A DNA stretch of 64,000 bases from Candidatus Saccharimonadota bacterium (GCA_017433245.1 JAFRHO010000005.1:27183-91182); one strand, 5' to 3'; positions 3,969 through 59,102 are shown, counted from the first letter of the stretch. Made by a program: numbers and translations. Notes: a model not told the origin generated them from the sequence alone.

Positions 3969-5705
3969 ATGGGTAACTCATTACAAAAGCGTGGGCAAAA
4001 ATTCATCCGAAAGTTTTCTCGTGCTACCACGAAGGCAAGCGAAGAGAGCAAAGAACACATCAAAGAGAATTTTTTTGGTCGCTGGAAGCACATTAGTGAT
4101 ATTAAGCTGTTGGTCTTAGAATGGTGCTTATTGATATCTGCTCTTATACTATTGGCGGTAGCGCAGACGTTCTGGTTTGCCGATTCGTATTCGCAGGATG
4201 TTTTTTCAAATGGCGGCAATTACATTGAGGCGACGCTGGGAGATGTGAACTCAATGAATCCTTTATTTGCCACGACAAATAGCGAAAAAGCACTCAGTCG
4301 ACTGATGTTTGGGACGCTGGTGACAGTAGATTATTCTGGGCATTCCAATATCGGGCTTGCAAGTGCTGTGACACCGAATGAAGATGGCAAAATTTGGACT
4401 GTGAAACTACGCGATGGTTTGACTTGGTCTGACGGTGAGCCAATTACTAATGATGACGTTCTGTATACAGCGGAGCTAATCCGTAATCCACGAGTATCAT
4501 CTATATATGATGCTAATCTATCAAACGTCAAGGTATCAGTCAATGAAAGCAATGAGATTGTCTTTACTTTACCGACAGCTTATGCGGATTTTATGTCGGC
4601 ATTGAATTTTCCGATTGTACCAAAACATATCTTGGCAGAAAACGACCCAGAAACTTTGATTGAAAATAGTTTTTCAACTGCACCAGTAACTTCGGGTGCG
4701 TTTTCTTTTAATGCATCGCAGGGTACTTCAAAAGCAGATGAACAGGTGATTTATTTGTCGGCTAATCCAGATTATTATAAGGGAAGGCCATTACTTAATA
4801 GTTTCGCGATTCATACTTATGAAAATAAAGAAGCGGTGGTTTCCGCCCTCAACGCCGGTACAGTAACCGCGACAGCAGAATTGACGGAGGCTGATCGAGA
4901 TTTGGTGGGCGCTGGCCAATTCTTAGAGAAGAACTCCAGTCTGAGTTCTGGTGCCTTTATCTTCTTTAACACTAAAAACGCGTTCGTAAAAAGTAAAGCA
5001 GTGCGAGCGGCGATTCGACAGGGAATCGATATAGCAAAACTACGTGAATTGGCGCCAGACACAGTGTCTCTAAACTACCCATTATTAACTTCACAGATTA
5101 AATTAACGGCTTATCCAGAGATACCGGGGCGAGACTTCGAGACAGCTAAGGCCAAGATTAGCGAAACGATGGGTGAGGAGTCAGTGACTTTGAATATCGC
5201 AACAGTTAACTCTGGTTATTTACCAGCTGTAACCAATGAGCTCGCTGAGCAATTAAAAAGTCTAGGGCTTAATGTTAATGTGTCGATTTATGAGGAGAAC
5301 CAGGAATTTATCACTAACATTATCTCAATGAGGGGCTACGATATTCTAGTGTATGAAGTAGAACTCGGGGCAGATCCCGATTTGCTCCCGTATTATCATT
5401 CTTCCCAAACTTCAAGTGGTGGGTTAAATCTTTCGAACTACCGTAATGCCTTGGTGGATGATTTGCTGCTTGGTGCGCGGGATACCCTCGACCAGGAACT
5501 ACGTGTGAAAAAATACGAGAGCTTCCTGGAATCCTGGATGGAAGATGTACCAGCAATTGGTTTATATCAACCAAACCTGACATACTATTATAATAAGAAC
5601 GTGCGCACCTTCAGCGATGGAGTAAAACTCGTGACTGCACTGGACAGGTTTTCGGATATCACAAATTGGGCGGTAACAAAAACTACCAAAAATAAAACTC
5701 CTTAA
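3969..5705 (+). CDS. ABC transporter substrate-binding protein, family 5 (peptide/nickel type), TM-anchored
   Basis: SMNPLFA, WTVKLRDGLTWSDGEPITNDDVLYT, PVTSGAF, VRAAIRQGID, YHSSQ..GLNLSNY motifs. Confidence 0.9.
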   Translation: MGNSLQKRGQKFIRKFSRATTKASEESKEHIKENFFGRWKHISDIKLLVLEWCLLISALILLAVAQTFWFADSYSQDVFSNGGNYIEATLGDVNSMNPLFATTNSEKALSRLMFGTLVTVDYSGHSNIGLASAVTPNEDGKIWTVKLRDGLTWSDGEPITNDDVLYTAELIRNPRVSSIYDANLSNVKVSVNESNEIVFTLPTAYADFMSALNFPIVPKHILAENDPETLIENSFSTAPVTSGAFSFNASQGTSKADEQVIYLSANPDYYKGRPLLNSFAIHTYENKEAVVSALNAGTVTATAELTEADRDLVGAGQFLEKNSSLSSGAFIFFNTKNAFVKSKAVRAAIRQGIDIAKLRELAPDTVSLNYPLLTSQIKLTAYPEIPGRDFETAKAKISETMGEESVTLNIATVNSGYLPAVTNELAEQLKSLGLNVNVSIYEENQEFITNIISMRGYDILVYEVELGADPDLLPYYHSSQTSSGGLNLSNYRNALVDDLLLGARDTLDQELRVKKYESFLESWMEDVPAIGLYQPNLTYYYNKNVRTFSDGVKLVTALDRFSDITNWAVTKTTKNKTP

Positions 5706-52655: not shown

Positions 52656-52682
52656 AAAATTCCCCCATTATGGGGGATTTTT
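52656..52682 (+). terminator. rpsJ terminator
   Basis: AAAATTCCCCCA-TTA-TGGGGGATTTTT. Confidence 0.8.
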
Positions 52683-52696
52683 GATATAATGGTTTT

Positions 52697-53965
52697 ATGA
52701 GTATTGCTGGTTTTAAGAAGCGTTTTTATTTCTCTGTGGCGAAGTATTTTCGATTCTTTGCGAATCTAGCTTTCAAGAGGTGGAATCCACGCGTAATAGC
52801 GGTGACCGGTTCGGCTGGGAAGACTACGATGATGAAGATGCTAGAGCATGAAATCGGCCCCAAGGCGCACTATTCGCATGATGCCAATTCGGCCTTTGGG
52901 ATTCCATTTGATGTTCTGGGGCTAACCGGGGTCAGAGGTTCGAAACTGAAGTGGATTTGGCTAATTTTTGCGGCACCGATTATGGGATTGTTTTTCTGGC
53001 GCCGTAAAGAATTCTATGTAGTAGAGATTGACGGGGAGCGTCCACACGAGACGGAATTCCTAGCAGAATGGCTAAAGCCAGAGGTGACGGTGTGGGTTTC
53101 GATTGGTTTATCTCACGCGGTACAGTTTGAAAAAGAGGTCGCAGCAGGGGAGTATAACGATGTGGGCGAGGCGATTGTGGCAGAGTTTGCGAATTTGCCA
53201 ACCAACACCACGAAACGAGTATATATCGATGCCGATTCGAAGATTATGGTCGAAGCCACTGCTAAGATTAAGGCAAAGGTAGTTCCGATTAAAAAACAAG
53301 ATATTAAGAAATATGTAGTTTACCCAGATTCGACCGATTTTACTTATGGGGATACGACCTTTCATTTCAACCACCCAGAGCCTAAAGATATAGCATTTAA
53401 TTTGTTCGTAGTGCAAGACTTGATGAAGTATTTAAAGCTGAAATTTAACCCGGATTTCACTGGAATGGAGATTGCGCCAGGGCGATGCTCGTATTTCGAA
53501 GGGAAGAAGGGTATTGCGATTGTAGATAGTAGTTACAATGCACATATGATTTCAATGATGTCTGTACTCGATATGGCGAAGCGGATGCATGCGGAGAAGA
53601 AATGGCTAGTGATTGGCGATATCGTAGATCAAGGATCTTTAGAAGAGGAGGAACACATTAAGCTGGCTAAGTTGATTGCTGCAGTAAAGCCAGATAAGGT
53701 GATTTTGGTAGGGCGACGAACTAAGGAATGGACGGCGCCGGAACTCAAAAAACTTGGAGTGTCAGCAGTGGCTACGACCGACCCGAGGAAAGCGCTTGAT
53801 TATATAGAGAAAAGAATTCACGGTAATGAAACTCTCATCTTCAAGGGGAGCCAGTATCTCGAGTGGATAATCGAGAAATTATTAGCACATCCGGAAGATG
53901 CAAAGAAACTTTGCCGACGCGAAAAAGCCGCCGTAATGCGACGTAAAAGTTGGGGATTAGAATAG
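52697..53965 (+). CDS. Mur ligase, MurF-like
   Basis: IAVTGSAGKTT P-loop, PGR, IVDSSYNA...SM, LVIGD, LIFKGSQ. Confidence 0.88.
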   Translation: MSIAGFKKRFYFSVAKYFRFFANLAFKRWNPRVIAVTGSAGKTTMMKMLEHEIGPKAHYSHDANSAFGIPFDVLGLTGVRGSKLKWIWLIFAAPIMGLFFWRRKEFYVVEIDGERPHETEFLAEWLKPEVTVWVSIGLSHAVQFEKEVAAGEYNDVGEAIVAEFANLPTNTTKRVYIDADSKIMVEATAKIKAKVVPIKKQDIKKYVVYPDSTDFTYGDTTFHFNHPEPKDIAFNLFVVQDLMKYLKLKFNPDFTGMEIAPGRCSYFEGKKGIAIVDSSYNAHMISMMSVLDMAKRMHAEKKWLVIGDIVDQGSLEEEEHIKLAKLIAAVKPDKVILVGRRTKEWTAPELKKLGVSAVATTDPRKALDYIEKRIHGNETLIFKGSQYLEWIIEKLLAHPEDAKKLCRREKAAVMRRKSWGLE

Positions 53966-53967
53966 AA

Positions 53968-54687
53968 ATGGCTAAAAACACCAGTGAAAAACAAGGAGCA
54001 ACGAAAACGATTGATTTATACATTATCCATGGTTGGACCTATACTGCAGAACCGTGGCGAACTACAGTGGGGATTTTGCGTGAAACTGGTATCAATGTAA
54101 GAATGCTGCCGGTGCCAGGGCTAACTGAACCATCGAAGAAGGTATTCACAATCGATGATTATATAAAATGGGCTGATAATGAAATTCCAGATGGGGCAAT
54201 TGCGCTGGGACATTCGAACGGCGGGAGGATTTTACTGAACCTTTGTGCGAAAAAGCCAGAAAAGTTGAAATATTTGATTCTGCTAGATAGTGCTGGAGTA
54301 TATGAGCCATCCCTGAAGAAGAAAGTAGTGGAGAAGGTGGCCAAGATGGGTAAGCCATTAAAGAAAATCCCGCTAGTAGATAAGGCATTTCATAAAGTAA
54401 CTGGTTCGACTGATTATTCGCGTGCACCGGAGAACATGAAGGTGACATTGACCAATATGTTGGCATCGGATAAGGATTTGGATTTCTCTAAAGTAACAAC
54501 GAAGACGTTTATTCTATGGGGCAAGAAGGATACCATCACGCCACCTAGGCAAGCAACAACAATGTATGAGAAACTACCGAATGCAGAACTAAAGTTTTAT
54601 GCAAATTGGACACATGCGCCTTATATTTCTGACCCTGAGGGGTTGGCGCGAGCACTAGTAACATTGGTGACGAGGATGAAACAATGA
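53968..54687 (+). CDS. Alpha/beta hydrolase
   Basis: IHGW, GHSNGG (GxSxG), LILLDSAG, WGKKDTITP, THAP. Confidence 0.9.
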   Translation: MAKNTSEKQGATKTIDLYIIHGWTYTAEPWRTTVGILRETGINVRMLPVPGLTEPSKKVFTIDDYIKWADNEIPDGAIALGHSNGGRILLNLCAKKPEKLKYLILLDSAGVYEPSLKKKVVEKVAKMGKPLKKIPLVDKAFHKVTGSTDYSRAPENMKVTLTNMLASDKDLDFSKVTTKTFILWGKKDTITPPRQATTMYEKLPNAELKFYANWTHAPYISDPEGLARALVTLVTRMKQ

Positions 54688-55820
54688 ATTGGCCGAAAAT
54701 GCGTAGACACTATTTTCTAGGCATGGCAGTGAACTACGCCAACGGCGAGTGGTTTAGACATTTGTTAACGGTCGGTAAACGAAAAGATTACGATGCATTG
54801 TCGAGATACTTAAGCCGTAAGTATAAGGGTGAGGCGATGCTATGCAAAAATGGGCGCTCAGCGTTAGCATTGGCACTGAAGGCATATTTTGAACCAGGAG
54901 ACGAGATTCTTGTAAATGGCTTTACCTGTTATGCGGTATATGAAGCAGTGGAGGCGGCAGAACTGAAACCGGTATTTGTGGATATTACGAAAGAGGATTT
55001 AAATTTCTCAGTAGAGACATTAGAGACAGCGATAGTGACCGGCAAAAACGTACGCGGTATTATTATTCAGAACACTTTAGGTAATCCAGTTGATATCAAA
55101 GCAATAGAGGCTTTCTCTAAGGAGCATAATTTAACGATTATCGAGGATTTAGCGCATTGTGCGGGCGTAAGATACAAAGACATGCGAGAGGTTGGGACCG
55201 TAGGTGCAGCATGCGCGTTATCGTTCGGTAAGGACAAAGCGATTGATACGATTTCAGGGGGAGCTGTAGTACTGCGTGACACTTGTAAACACGAGATTAA
55301 GGCACCTAGTCTTTTGCCGAAACTGTCCGACCATCTCAAGGCGAGATTCTACCCGATGTTTGGTGCAATGAGTCGAGGTTTGTCGTATATAGGAGTAGGT
55401 GGAGCCCTAATGCGAGGTTTGGTAAAAATCCATTGGGTGGAGAGGTCAGCCGACAATAAACTGGATTTGGAAAGACGACCGAGTAAGTTTGAAGCGAAAC
55501 TAGCGCTTGAACAGCTAAAGCGTCTGAGAAGAAACGGCGAGCCAATACTGAGGGATTTTTGCTTCGTGCACGATAGAGATAAAGTACTGAAAGAATTACA
55601 AAAGAAAGGTTATTATTTCAATGGATTCTGGTATGAAAAACCTGTTTCGCCGACGCGATATTATAAAAAAGTGCATTTCCCAGAATCCGACTGCCCGAAC
55701 GCAGTTTATGTGGCTGAGCATATTATTAATATACCAAATTATTATACGAGACGAGATTTAGTGGCAGCAAATAAAATAATAAAAGAATTCCAAGAGGAGG
55801 GAAATGGGCGGAAAGGATAA
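54684..55820 (+). CDS. DegT/DnrJ/EryC1/StrS-family PLP enzyme
   Basis: NGRSAL.LAL, PGDEIL, PVFVDI, IIEDLAH..G, SFGKDK, GGA. Confidence 0.85.
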   Translation: MNWPKMRRHYFLGMAVNYANGEWFRHLLTVGKRKDYDALSRYLSRKYKGEAMLCKNGRSALALALKAYFEPGDEILVNGFTCYAVYEAVEAAELKPVFVDITKEDLNFSVETLETAIVTGKNVRGIIIQNTLGNPVDIKAIEAFSKEHNLTIIEDLAHCAGVRYKDMREVGTVGAACALSFGKDKAIDTISGGAVVLRDTCKHEIKAPSLLPKLSDHLKARFYPMFGAMSRGLSYIGVGGALMRGLVKIHWVERSADNKLDLERRPSKFEAKLALEQLKRLRRNGEPILRDFCFVHDRDKVLKELQKKGYYFNGFWYEKPVSPTRYYKKVHFPESDCPNAVYVAEHIINIPNYYTRRDLVAANKIIKEFQEEGNGRKG

Positions 55821-56793
55821 CGATTGGAAAAAAGTAGTACAAAATCATCCTGAGGCGAATTTCTTACAGTCGCCGGCTTATGGCAAAATGAATGAGATTC
55901 TGGGTTCGCGGGTGATTTGCGATAGTTTTGGTGGGAAAGGTTATGCACTAATGGTGGTGCGTGATGCCAAACGAGGTCGTTATCTTGAGATACCATGTGG
56001 ACCATTGATTGATTGGAACGATAAAAAACTCGTGAAGATAGTATTTGATAAAATAAGAGAAATTGCCAAAGCGGAGAAATGTGTATTCGTACGGATTCGC
56101 CCACAATTAAAATGTACACCGGAAAATTTGAAACTATTAGCTGGACTAGGACTTACTAAATCGCCAATGCATCTTGCAGCGGAACATACAGTAATGATTG
56201 ACCTTAACGCCGATGAGGAACAATTACTAGCAAATATGCGGCGACAAACTCGGTACGAAGTGCGTAGAGCTGATAAGCTGGGGGTCCGAGTAATATGTGA
56301 TAATTCGCGCGAATTATTTAAAGAGTTTCACAAAGTGCAAGCGGCAACCGCTAAGAGGCAAGGTTTTGTGCCGCCGAATTTGGATACCCTGATGGCGGAA
56401 ATGGAAGCGTTTGGCAATAACGCTAAGATATATGTAGCAGAAACGACGGAAGGCGAGAAGATTGCGTATGGCTTGATTATTGCTGACGGCCTGGAAGGGG
56501 ATTATTATGAAGCGGCTTCAACCGAGCTAAACCGCAAGTTACCGGGAGCCTATGCTTTGCTCTGGCGCGTAATGCGGGATTTGAAAGAATCAGGATACGA
56601 GCGGTTTAATTTGTGGGGGATTGCACCGCCAAATCAGCCACAACATCGATATGCTAAAGTAACGACATTCAAGACTGGGTTTGGTGGAGAAGTGGTTGAA
56701 TATGTGCCGGCACATGATTTAGTGATATCTCGAGTGGGATACTTGAAGGATTTGGTGGTTGAAAAGGCTCGAAAGAAACGGAGACATTTATGA
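55804..56793 (+). CDS. FemABX-family peptidyltransferase (first)
   Basis: NFLQS..YG, LEIPCGP, FVRIRP, LLANMRRQTRY.VR, YYEAAS, FNLWGI, FKTGFGG. Confidence 0.9.
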   Translation: MGGKDNDWKKVVQNHPEANFLQSPAYGKMNEILGSRVICDSFGGKGYALMVVRDAKRGRYLEIPCGPLIDWNDKKLVKIVFDKIREIAKAEKCVFVRIRPQLKCTPENLKLLAGLGLTKSPMHLAAEHTVMIDLNADEEQLLANMRRQTRYEVRRADKLGVRVICDNSRELFKEFHKVQAATAKRQGFVPPNLDTLMAEMEAFGNNAKIYVAETTEGEKIAYGLIIADGLEGDYYEAASTELNRKLPGAYALLWRVMRDLKESGYERFNLWGIAPPNQPQHRYAKVTTFKTGFGGEVVEYVPAHDLVISRVGYLKDLVVEKARKKRRHL

Positions 56794-57806
56794 ACATACT
56801 TGATGCCACCGATAAGTCGATATGGGATGGGTTCGTTAAAGGTCGCCCGGAAGCAAATTTCTTACAGTCGTGGGATTTCTATGAGTTTCACTTGGCACGG
56901 GGAAAGAAGGTAGTGCGACGATTAATCTATGTTGATGATGTGATTGTGGGAGCTTATGCTGGGGTAGTTGAGACCGCTAAGCGCGGGCGGTACCTTGCGA
57001 TTGCGGGCGGGCCGATTATAGATTGGGATGATAATAAGATAGTTACGGCGATATTTGATGATATCAAAGAACAGGGCGCTGCGGCTGGATGTGTATTTGT
57101 GCGCGTGCGGCCACAATTAGAACTATCTGATAAATCGTTGAAGTTGATGTCTAGGCTAGGTTTAAAGCGGGCGCCAATGTACCTATCGGTAGAATTCGCT
57201 GGGGTATTAAATCTGGAAAAACCCGAAGAGGAGATTCTGGCTGGGGCATCGCAAGGATTCCGACGCAAGTTGCGCAAGGCTGCCAAAAATGATATTGAGA
57301 TTACTGCTGAAACGAGCAATACTGCAATTAACGAGTTTTGCAGATTGGAAAAACTGCATGCCGAGAGGCAGAAATACGTAGCGTTTTCGACATCATTTCT
57401 AACGAAACAATTTGAAGCGTTTCGCGAAGGTGGGGAAGTGTTGATTTATACAGCGCGTAAGGATGGTGAGACTCTGGCACAGAATTTTATGATATTCTAT
57501 GGGCCAGAGGCAAGCTATCATTATGGAGTGTCATCGGAACTCGGGACACGATATTCAGCAGCACCTTTACTGCATATGGAGGCAATGAAAGAGGCAAGAA
57601 AGCGCGGTTGTATTCGTTATAACTTATGGGGGATTGTGGAGCCGGACGAAACGTCACATCGGTTCTATGGAGTATCGGAGTTCAAGCGGTCATTTGGGTG
57701 CGAGGAATTACGCTATACGCCGGCGCATGATTTGGTATTAAAACCGGCCAAGTATCAGTTGACTTGGGTGGTGGAAACGGCGAGAAAGAAGAAGCGGAGG
57801 GTTTAG
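56790..57806 (+). CDS. FemABX-family peptidyltransferase (second)
   Basis: NFLQSWD, IAGGP, FVRVRP, SYHYGVS, YNLWGI, GVSEFKRSFG. Confidence 0.9.
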   Translation: MNILDATDKSIWDGFVKGRPEANFLQSWDFYEFHLARGKKVVRRLIYVDDVIVGAYAGVVETAKRGRYLAIAGGPIIDWDDNKIVTAIFDDIKEQGAAAGCVFVRVRPQLELSDKSLKLMSRLGLKRAPMYLSVEFAGVLNLEKPEEEILAGASQGFRRKLRKAAKNDIEITAETSNTAINEFCRLEKLHAERQKYVAFSTSFLTKQFEAFREGGEVLIYTARKDGETLAQNFMIFYGPEASYHYGVSSELGTRYSAAPLLHMEAMKEARKRGCIRYNLWGIVEPDETSHRFYGVSEFKRSFGCEELRYTPAHDLVLKPAKYQLTWVVETARKKKRRV

Positions 57807-57910
57807 GACATTTTTATGTTTTTACCGTATTCTTCGAAAAACCCTACTGTGAGGTTTTATTATAACATATTTGACTTGTTTACGCGAATACAATGCGCTA
57901 TAATGGAAGT

Positions 57911-58324
57911 ATGAAGAAAAAGGTGTCAGATTCAGTAACAGTAAACCGCAGAGCACATTATGATTATGTACTCGGCGACGAGCTTTCTGTCGGAATGGTA
58001 TTATCTGGACCAGAAGTGCGCTCAATCCGTGATCATCACGTGCAGCTGAAGGGCTCGTTTGTAACAATTCGCAACAATGAGTTGTGGCTGAATAATCTGA
58101 CTTTGGGGGCTGATACGGCACGAAATATTAAGTTACTCGCGACGAAGAAACAGATTGCAGCATTAGAGCGTGAAAAGATAGCTGGCTCTACAATTGTACC
58201 CGTAAAGTTGCTAGGTGGTAACCGCCATATAAAGTTAGTAATCGCCGTAGGTAAAGGTAAAAAGAAATATGACAAAAGAGAAACAATCAAAAAGAGGGAT
58301 ATTGAGCGAGGGAGATATGCTTAA
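57911..58324 (+). CDS. smpB: SsrA-binding protein
   Basis: NRRAHYDY, GMVLSG.EVRSIR, KLL, GKGKKKYDKRE.IK.RD. Confidence 0.95.
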   Translation: MKKKVSDSVTVNRRAHYDYVLGDELSVGMVLSGPEVRSIRDHHVQLKGSFVTIRNNELWLNNLTLGADTARNIKLLATKKQIAALEREKIAGSTIVPVKLLGGNRHIKLVIAVGKGKKKYDKRETIKKRDIERGRYA

Positions 58325-59102
58325 AATATATTCGTGGAACGTGAATGGGCTCCGGGCGGTGATCCGGAAGGGGGCCTTGCAGGATTTTATCGGTAAATAT
58401 GAACCTGATATACTGTGCCTGCAGGAGACTAAGGCGAAGCAGGGGCAGGCAGAGGTGGATTTACCGGAGTATGAGGAGCTGTGGAACTCGGCGGAGCGGC
58501 CGGGGTATGCGGGGACGGCGATTTTTACTAGAATTAAGCCATTATCGGTACGGTATGGTTTGCCAACCGAAGTGGTGATGGCGGATGAATACGGTGACCC
58601 TTTGACCGAAGGTAGGGTACTGACGGCGGAATTTGAGAAGTTCTTTTTGGTGGATGTATATACACCGAATTCCAAGAACGAATTGGAGCGGCTGGGGCTT
58701 CGGGAGGGAAAATGGGACCCGGAATTTTTGAAGTATTTGAAAGAATTAGAGAAGGTGAAACCGGTAGTGGTGTGTGGTGATTTCAACGCGGCGCATGAAG
58801 AAATTGATATCGCGCGGCCTCAGACTAATCATCACTCGGCTGGGTTCACAGACGAAGAGAGACGGGGAATTACGAATTTAGTGTCAGCTGGGCTACTGGA
58901 TACGTTTCGGGTTTTGCATCCGAAGGAAGTGCGTTACACCTGGTGGTCACACTGGGGTCATGCACGCGCGAACAATGTGGGTTGGCGGATTGATTATTTC
59001 TTTATTTCGAAAAGTTTGCGTGAGAATTTGAAGTCGGCGGAGATTTATGAGGACGTGATGGGGTCGGATCATTGTCCAGTGTCAATCGAATTGGAGTTTT
59101 AG
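58317..59102 (+). CDS. xth: Exodeoxyribonuclease III / AP endonuclease
   Basis: SWNVNGLRA, CLQETK, EGR, YTPNS, CGDFN.AH, YTWWS, GWRIDYF, GSDHCP. Confidence 0.95.
   Translation: MLKIYSWNVNGLRAVIRKGALQDFIGKYEPDILCLQETKAKQGQAEVDLPEYEELWNSAERPGYAGTAIFTRIKPLSVRYGLPTEVVMADEYGDPLTEGRVLTAEFEKFFLVDVYTPNSKNELERLGLREGKWDPEFLKYLKELEKVKPVVVCGDFNAAHEEIDIARPQTNHHSAGFTDEERRGITNLVSAGLLDTFRVLHPKEVRYTWWSHWGHARANNVGWRIDYFFISKSLRENLKSAEIYEDVMGSDHCPVSIELEF

Follow-up and report, generated by a model that had tools for sequence, protein, structure and literature searches.

A conserved MurF-hydrolase-DegT-Fem gene row of Candidatus Nanosyncoccus that may take the place of Ddl in stem-peptide synthesis

Introduction

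Synthesis of D-Ala-D-Ala by Ddl and its addition to the stem peptide by MurF are regarded as near-universal, and are the targets of cycloserine, glycopeptides and, indirectly, β-lactams. Here we describe a row of five same-strand genes at positions 52697-57806 of a 64,000-nucleotide stretch of DNA (the window; GCA_017433245.1, JAFRHO010000005.1:27183-91182) from a Candidatus Saccharimonadota bacterium. The row encodes a MurF-like ligase, an alpha/beta hydrolase, a DegT-like pyridoxal phosphate (PLP) enzyme and two Fem transferases, Fem1 and Fem2. The reading that we prefer, and put forward tentatively, is that the row is the MurF cassette of its lineage and carries out the final cytoplasmic step of stem-peptide synthesis in a variant form, in which the DegT-like enzyme and Fem would supply or shape the unit that MurF adds and would thereby functionally replace Ddl.

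The chemistry of the enzyme classes concerned is restrictive. Fem enzymes perform only amine acylation, using an L- or glycyl residue from aminoacyl-tRNA, and a PLP enzyme requires a free amine or keto group. In FemX of Weissella viridescens, FemX(Wv), Lys305 has a catalytic role (PMC12945691). The Fem-like domain of DhpH from the dehydrophos pathway of Streptomyces luridus (DhpH-C) moves Leu from Leu-tRNA onto the amine of an alanine analogue and yields a free dipeptide (PMC12945691). In the vanSRJKHAX cluster of Streptomyces coelicolor, the Fem paralogue VanK is encoded together with the stem-terminus genes, since the housekeeping FemX refuses the altered terminus (PMC6001138). Our literature search on this row, or on Ddl-less peptidoglycan in Saccharibacteria/Patescibacteria, found nothing relevant.

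Results

Gene content and conservation of the row

The genome that contains the window (G000; 688 kb, 15 contigs, 78% complete) is that of a Candidatus Nanosyncoccus (Saccharibacteria, candidate phyla radiation) from the ruminant gut. Its close relatives, likewise from ruminant gut, bear the names Candidatus Nanosyncoccus or Candidatus Saccharibacteria, and the DNA sequencing runs with matches are ruminant gut and digester metagenomes; no RNA run was among the matches listed. The genes of the row are as follows, with coordinates counted from the first letter of the window.

52697..53965, + strand: short C-type MurF-family ligase, 422 aa (Mur_ligase_C and MurF models)
53968..54687, + strand: alpha/beta-fold serine hydrolase, 239 aa (PF00561; triad Ser83-Asp188-His216)
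54684..55820, + strand: DegT/DnrJ/EryC1-like fold-type I PLP enzyme, 378 aa (PF01041)
55804..56793, + strand: Fem1, FemABX-family transferase, 329 aa (PF02388)
56790..57806, + strand: Fem2, second FemABX-family transferase, 338 aa (PF02388)

Conservation was assessed in 121 Saccharimonadaceae genomes (the family sample) and in 301 genomes of the phylum. A DegT-like orthologue was found in 14 of the former and a DegT-like match in 58 of the latter. Twenty-five carrier genomes were fetched, among them members of two further families of the order and two genomes from elsewhere in the phylum, and 24 of them keep the order MurF-hydrolase-DegT-Fem(-Fem); in the remaining one, G113, the hydrolase lies upstream of MurF. 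Across the phylum, MurF, DegT and Fem are adjacent at approximately 25 of the 29 best DegT-like matches. The flanks of the row vary between lineages. The recurrence of the gene order in 25 other genomes argues that the row is not a chance arrangement. The first-pass annotation of the window had named lack of conservation as grounds for abandoning its proposal of an unusual cross-bridge pathway; the cluster is kept as a unit in the 25 carriers. Two local variations were seen: in G003 the DegT-like gene is duplicated in tandem, and both products are 43-44% identical to the protein of the window (L074 5725-8605), and in G010 approximately 1.2 kb is inserted between Fem1 and Fem2 (L077 4970-6244).

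The only MurF-type ligase of the genus

The row ligase is the only MurF-type ligase of the genus. The Mur set of G000 consists of MurC, MurD and MurE, encoded away from the row, and the row ligase, with no further Mur_ligase_C match, and genus genomes that are 97-100% complete hold the same set and no other MurF. The placement of the row in a peptidoglycan precursor pathway, made in the first-pass annotation, holds. The possibility that the row ligase is an extra enzyme beside a canonical mur set was considered and rejected, since it is the sole MurF of G000.

The best-scoring models for the ligase are those of MurF. It reaches 106.6 bits against TIGR01143 (cut-off 288.6), a cut-off that no sampled Saccharimonadaceae MurF attains (top score 214 bits). 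It also matches PF02875 (Mur_ligase_C) with 44.7 bits (cut-off 28.4), and PF08245 with 21.5 bits, below the cut-off of 24. The P-loop G38-S39-x-G41-K42-T43 and residues E110, H140 and H320 are invariant among orthologues; the protein is a MurF-family enzyme whose ATP/Mg residues are intact. In a phylogenetic tree it groups with MurF and not with MurC, MurD or MurE; the row ligases form their own long-branched clade (C-type), whose sister group is the short B-type MurF found in other Saccharimonadaceae, the long A-type being separate. C-type MurF keeps 11 of the 24 columns common to A- and B-type MurF, too few shared columns for a reading of the pocket without a substrate-bound structure.

The nearest relatives in the PDB are the MurF structures 3zl8 and 1gg4, and the alignment begins at their residue ∼ 80. 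The row ligase is without the N-terminal substrate-binding domain (∼ 80 aa), its P-loop starting at residue 38. Since MurE of G000 is likewise truncated at the N-terminus, we regard this loss as a trait of the lineage and not as a sign of a new substrate. Prediction of a complex between C-type MurF and the hydrolase returned a score of 0.00, which gives no verdict and is not evidence either way.

Other Mur-related genes were noted in passing. A stand-alone Mur ligase middle (ATP-binding) domain of 246 aa (PF08245, 60.7 bits) is encoded on contig C5 of G000 (C5:19249-19989; L015:14249-14989, + strand), where it adjoins murE in divergent orientation; at least eight genus genomes have a similar ORF of 249-256 aa next to murE. 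In seven Saccharimonadaceae loci (L082-L084, L093, L094, L096, L097) a conserved protein of 384-500 aa that belongs to no Pfam family comes after the short B-type MurF, with leucyl-tRNA synthetase (LeuRS) next. This partner of B-type MurF is absent from G000. The LeuRS of L098, L096, L090, L083, L082 and L081 is ∼ 960-1170 aa long, and the one member that was scanned (L098, 959 aa) has a NUDIX domain inserted after the editing domain (residues 383-500).

Exchange of Ddl for DegT-like and Fem genes

Two comparisons of MurF cassettes place the DegT-like and Fem genes where Ddl is found in relatives. In a chromosomal context running from LeuRS to LigA-HtpX, the non-carriers G030, G028 and G026 have short MurF-Ddl-class IV aminotransferase, and the same slot in the carriers G216 and G027 is filled by short MurF-hydrolase-DegT-Fem. 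Independently of this context, seven genomes of different families have hydrolase-MurF(A)-Ddl, and G113 has hydrolase-MurF(A-like)-DegT-Fem. Taken together, the comparisons indicate that the hydrolase and MurF form a constant pair and that Ddl and DegT+Fem alternate as the third element.

The distribution of Ddl is consistent with such an exchange. The Ddl model TIGR01205 matched nothing in G000, which is 78% complete, and nothing in seven further genus genomes that are 97-100% complete (0/8). In the family sample, Ddl above the curated cut-off was found in none of the 14 carriers and in 72 of the 107 other genomes (Fisher p = 9e-7); in the phylum sample it was found in 0/58 carriers and 97/243 others (Fisher p = 9e-12). 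Neither p value is corrected for kinship, which inflates both. One of the 97 is G184, an unpublished genome, without which the count is 96/242. Two carriers, G047 and G075, do possess a Ddl of 225-230 bits; in both, the gene belongs to another hydrolase-MurF+Ddl cassette apart from the row, as a modular arrangement would predict. G137 is a third such carrier (Ddl of ∼ 227 bits), but the 10.8 kb fetched on and about its Ddl gene showed no MurF.

The position of DegT-like and Fem genes in the slot of Ddl, the absence of canonical Ddl from carriers and the status of the row ligase as sole MurF all point to the C-terminus of the stem peptide (the MurF/Ddl step) rather than to the cross-bridge.

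In the seven Saccharimonadia genomes with hydrolase-MurF(A)-Ddl (L017-L022, L099), hydrolase, long MurF (∼ 480 aa) and Ddl (∼ 390 aa) are tightly coupled. G359, G384 and G434 are examples of genomes in which hydrolase-MurF-Ddl occurs together with a short B-type MurF, making two parallel MurF systems; G359 at least also has a second Ddl.

The hydrolase

The hydrolase matches PF00561 with 47 bits and the BioH model with 71.1 bits (cut-off 206.95). Ser83, in a GHSNGG motif, Asp188 and His216 are invariant in 26 orthologues, and an HGW oxyanion motif is present. The AlphaFold2 model has a pLDDT of 88.5 and most resembles BioH and small esterases in fold (TM 0.6-0.7), generic relatives that give no clue to the substrate. 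Homologues of the hydrolase also flank MurF in the hydrolase-MurF-Ddl cassettes. The hydrolase is a general partner of MurF, whichever supply module is present, and the earlier suggestion that it specifically edits scavenged precursors is not upheld.

The DegT-like PLP enzyme

The match of the third protein to PF01041 (124 bits) is confined to profile positions 40-192 of 360. Its Lys185 (Schiff base) and Asp155 (pyridine nitrogen) are invariant among orthologues. It is 25-30% identical to nucleoside diphosphate (NDP)-sugar aminotransferases in the N-terminal half only, and all equivalog models score far under their cut-offs, the best being PseC with 93 bits against 423. The structural model (pLDDT 89) retrieved only sugar aminotransferases among the top Foldseek matches, with TM values of 0.62-0.65 that provide no substrate clue. 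More than 3,000 relatives of the protein were found, the close ones 60-80% identical. A dehydratase or oxidoreductase that could make a keto-sugar was found in none of the ∼ 25 rows examined, the rows themselves being what was searched.

Ten protein clusters (P0121-P0130) are DegT::Fem fusions of 698-769 aa, which indicates that PLP enzyme and Fem are functionally tied. The first-pass annotation had proposed that the PLP enzyme makes an amine for the Fems to extend. The fusions support the tie between the two, and for an amine made by a PLP enzyme and acylated by a Fem there is a precedent in DhpH (for the Fem half, PMC12945691); as for the site, the evidence favours the stem C-terminus and not the cross-bridge that had been suggested. 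Judged by their conserved catalytic residues, the hydrolase, the DegT-like enzyme, Fem1 and Fem2 all look active.

The Fem transferases

Fem1 and Fem2 match PF02388 with 129.4 and 108.8 bits (cut-off 24), each in three stretches that cover both GNAT halves. In both, the protein is short, resembles FemX and has no coiled-coil arm. The structural relatives of Fem1 are FemX (6snr), FemA (1lrz) and 9wqw, described as an 'aminoacyl-tRNA-dependent peptide synthase'. Both row Fems have an F-K motif at the F-K position of FemX 6snr; its correspondence to Phe304-Lys305 of FemX(Wv) was made by motif only. Against the FemX equivalog NF047883 they score 29.7 and 48.1 bits (cut-off 500).

In the Fem tree, Fem1 and Fem2 are two orthologous clades within the family, so the duplication is old and both copies have been maintained; the single Fems of rows in other families are sister to Fem2. 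Fem1, which adjoins the DegT-like gene, is the faster-evolving paralogue. Carriers keep a housekeeping-type Fem outside the row, which makes the row Fems additional enzymes. In G000 it is a 310-aa gene on contig C5, and it groups with the out-of-row Fems of other carriers, a conserved type.

The same part of contig C5 (C5:8018-10979; L015:3018-5979, - strand) encodes a strongly FemX-like protein of 351 aa (PF02388, 288 bits), a DUF3137 protein and the 310-aa Fem. The 351-aa protein was considered as the housekeeping bridge enzyme of the family and rejected, having no orthologue in two other genus genomes.

Wall inventory of the genome

G000 encodes MurI and one penicillin-binding transpeptidase, and no YkuD. 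In its 78% complete assembly we did not find Alr or a class IV aminotransferase, nor MraY, which is present in four of five genus genomes. Within the window, an Opp/Dpp-type peptide-binding protein is encoded at 3969-5705 (+ strand; PF00496, 160 bits), with ORFs of 340 and 318 aa behind it. Each of the five genus genomes tested for this binding protein has it.

Transcription and gene boundaries

Two features lie between the row and the upstream gene rpsJ (S10).

52661..52677, + strand: terminator-like hairpin, 7-bp stem (5 GC pairs), then a run of T; ends the upstream rpsJ
52682..52690, + strand: extended -10 element TGATATAAT, 6 nt upstream of ATG 52697 of the MurF-like gene

In a direct reading, the rpsJ stop and the hairpin separate the row from rpsJ. 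The element TGATATAAT has no -35 partner; it was hence not listed by a consensus promoter scan and was found by eye. Its layout fits a leaderless start at ATG 52697. Within the row, the first two genes are 2 nt apart, the hydrolase and DegT-like genes overlap by ATGA, the DegT-like gene and Fem1 overlap by 17 nt (GAGGAGG lies ahead of Fem1), and Fem1 and Fem2 again overlap by ATGA; by this layout the five genes would be co-transcribed. For the hydrolase the ORF listing gives TTG 53950; the in-frame ATG 53968, 2 nt past the MurF stop, agrees with the start of most orthologues and is most likely the true start. The ORFs, the junctions and the placing of TGATATAAT bear out the original description of five tightly coupled genes behind one leaderless promoter.

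Downstream of the row, smpB (57850-58324 with its promoter) has a similarly leaderless layout, with a TTGACT-17-TATAAT promoter 6 nt ahead of its ATG at 57893. The xth ORF (58269-59102) overlaps smpB by 56 nt and its family match begins only at residue 18; the true xth start is probably further downstream than that of the listed ORF.

Discussion

In the reading that we prefer, the DegT-like/Fem unit would supply or shape an amino acid or dipeptide, which MurF would join to UDP-MurNAc-tripeptide where other bacteria use the D-Ala-D-Ala made by Ddl. Given the chemistry of Fem enzymes, a row Fem would make aa-X from a free amino acid X, much as DhpH-C makes Leu-Ala(P). The DegT-like enzyme could form X from a keto acid, or could epimerise the free N-terminal residue of the dipeptide. 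Fem1 and Fem2, which descend from one ancestral Fem, probably divide two acyl-transfer steps or two aminoacyl-tRNA specificities, and the most likely role of the hydrolase is to edit or release a substrate or product of MurF that is an ester or amide. A fully specified version of this scheme would be a Ddl-independent, aminoacyl-tRNA-dependent route to the stem terminus: Fem would condense aminoacyl-tRNA with a free amino acid, Fem1 and Fem2 sharing out two transfer steps; the DegT-like enzyme would either produce that acceptor or invert the residue at the N-terminus; the short MurF would ligate the product and the hydrolase would proofread. The terminus would then differ from D-Ala-D-Ala in how it is made and perhaps in its composition. 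That all of these assignments are right we consider unlikely.

Several observations weigh against the replacement of Ddl by the row. At the phylum level, 20 of the 58 carriers hold a Ddl-like gene at E<=1e-30, and a strict rule that the row excludes Ddl was rejected on this ground. Seventeen of the Ddl-like genes of carriers score 115-146 bits and come mostly from one family; four of them were fetched, and these are solitary genes with no adjoining second MurF. Approximately 28 family genomes have neither the row nor Ddl, so Ddl is also lost where no row is present, and the carrier genomes are related, so that the counts overstate their independence. Few genomes of the family have Alr (11/121) or a class IV aminotransferase (6/121), even where Ddl is present (72/121), and their absence from row carriers consequently says little. 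Most Saccharimonadaceae with Ddl show no recognisable source of D-alanine, as far as their gene content can be read, and D-amino acids are probably scavenged across the family. The Opp/Dpp-type protein makes uptake of D-Ala-D-Ala or muropeptides possible in principle. We also considered whether the row replaces alanine racemase, and rejected this, since Alr and class IV aminotransferase are rare with or without Ddl. The chemistry presents a further difficulty: Fem donors are L-amino acids or glycine and classical transpeptidases need a D-residue at position 4, so that the proposed route would require a putative epimerase in a protein family known for sugar transamination. The ligands named here for the ligase, the Fems and the PLP enzyme are putative. 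We therefore treat replacement of Ddl by the row as a lead, not as proof.

If the wall is built from scavenged D-Ala-D-Ala, MurF could be an ordinary enzyme and the rest of the row could serve the cross-bridge. Fem2 and Fem1 would then work on the MurF product in the cytoplasm, like FemX(Wv), and add one or two residues to the side-chain amine of position 3; the DegT-like enzyme, pre-adapted to amines on nucleotide sugars, would epimerise or transaminate the free alpha-amine of the branch residue, and the hydrolase would trim or proofread. The row Fems, being short, FemX(Wv)-like, free of a coiled coil and in possession of the F-K motif, are what such a pathway would use, and a position after murF suits enzymes that act on the product of MurF. 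Fem genes occur in 98 of the 121 family genomes, which implies that branched walls are normal there; genes for peptide uptake are present, and most relatives are without a known D-Ala source anyway. The structural relatives of the DegT-like enzyme all bind NDP-sugars, which would also suit a cross-bridge role, and VanK is an example of a Fem tied to a particular stem terminus (PMC6001138). This account leaves unexplained why DegT+Fem should occupy the exact slot of Ddl in two different MurF cassettes, and why no carrier has Ddl above the cut-off. Two more branch enzymes would also be less needed beside a separate housekeeping-type Fem, and we know of no PLP-dependent modification of a branch residue, which counts against the idea. 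On balance we judge a cross-bridge function somewhat unlikely, though it is the main alternative to our preferred reading.

An epibiotic lifestyle and a tiny genome in which Ddl, Alr and class IV aminotransferase were not found would also suit a recycling pathway. The short ligase would then act like Mpl and attach peptides or dipeptides imported from the host or the gut to UDP-MurNAc(-peptide), the hydrolase would trim them, and the DegT-like enzyme and Fem would repair or re-tailor them. The conservation within the genus of an Opp/Dpp binding protein encoded in the window itself is in keeping with this proposal, and the missing N-terminal domain of the ligase would be as well, were the same loss not found in MurE of G000. 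By sequence the ligase belongs with MurF and not with Mpl or MurC, the presence of MurC, MurD and MurE points to a stem that is built stepwise, and the hydrolase accompanies MurF in genomes with Ddl too. Scavenging as the purpose of the row is thus quite unlikely.

A protective role, of the kind that van genes have, overlaps in mechanism with our preferred reading and differs only in purpose. A terminus other than D-Ala-D-Ala would evade glycopeptides or the wall-targeting enzymes of actinobacterial hosts or gut competitors; the DegT-like enzyme would make the residue, Fem would be the ligase or a dedicated branch enzyme like VanK, and the hydrolase would remove normal precursors in the manner of VanX/VanY. 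As expected of an accessory module, the MurF cassette lies beside a second one in G349, G401, G407, G410, G047 and G075, the distribution of the row is patchy and its flanks vary by lineage; VanK itself is a precedent (PMC6001138). In the genus, however, the row is the sole MurF cassette and none of the genomes examined lacks it, which indicates a housekeeping and not an inducible accessory function. The row has no regulator or sensor gene, and we saw no homologue of VanH, VanA or VanX in it. We regard protection as improbable.

That the DegT-like enzyme and Fem put an aminoacyl group on an NDP-amino sugar or other glycopolymer, with the adjacency to murF a mere matter of gene order, is very improbable: all fold relatives of the DegT-like enzyme are NDP-sugar enzymes, but different families and classes all maintain the close translational coupling to murF, no row contains a dehydratase or oxidoreductase that forms a keto-sugar, and the row travels independently of capsule genes.

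Should the DegT-like enzyme and Fem indeed take the place of Ddl, many ultra-small bacteria would have a new tRNA- and PLP-dependent synthesis of the stem terminus, or a stem with a different terminus, with effects on wall cross-linking, host dependence and the antibiotic sensitivity of these epibionts. A more modest reading still leaves an uncharacterized hydrolase partner of MurF, a PLP-enzyme/Fem unit that is sometimes fused, and a gap in the D-Ala source of Ddl-bearing Saccharimonadaceae.

The N-terminal domain of DhpH is a PLP enzyme that acts earlier in the same pathway as the Fem-like domain. With such a domain, the PLP::Fem architecture of DhpH would match the DegT::Fem fusions, a comparison made by description only; unlike the row, DhpH serves secondary metabolism and is not partnered by a Mur ligase. 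The NDP-sugar aminotransferases (QdtB 3frk, WbpE, ArnB, perosamine synthase) have in common with the DegT-like enzyme the fold, the PLP lysine and the aspartate. The DegT-like enzyme differs in that it matches only the N-terminal half of the profile and superposes with TM values of only 0.62-0.65, with no keto-sugar partner in the row and in the context of a stem-peptide operon. With the UDP-MurNAc-pentapeptide:L-Ala transferase FemX of W. viridescens (1ne9, 4ii9) and with FemX and FemA of S. aureus (6snr, 1lrz), the row Fems share the double-GNAT PF02388 fold, and they resemble FemX(Wv) in their length of ∼ 330 aa and in having no coiled coil. However, they score only 21-57 bits to these proteins, and they are encoded with MurF and a PLP enzyme, to which they are sometimes fused. 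The VanK cluster likewise combines a Fem with a ligase, a hydrolase and an enzyme that makes the substrate; the row is without homologues of VanH, VanA and VanX and without a regulator, and in the genus it is constitutive and the only MurF cassette. The canonical pair of Ddl and MurF, with Alr or a D-amino-acid transaminase, has the P-loop and Mg residues of the MurF family, the chromosomal slot, the hydrolase partner and the step after MurE in common with the row, whereas the row has DegT-like and Fem genes as its supply genes and a divergent MurF without the N-terminal domain.

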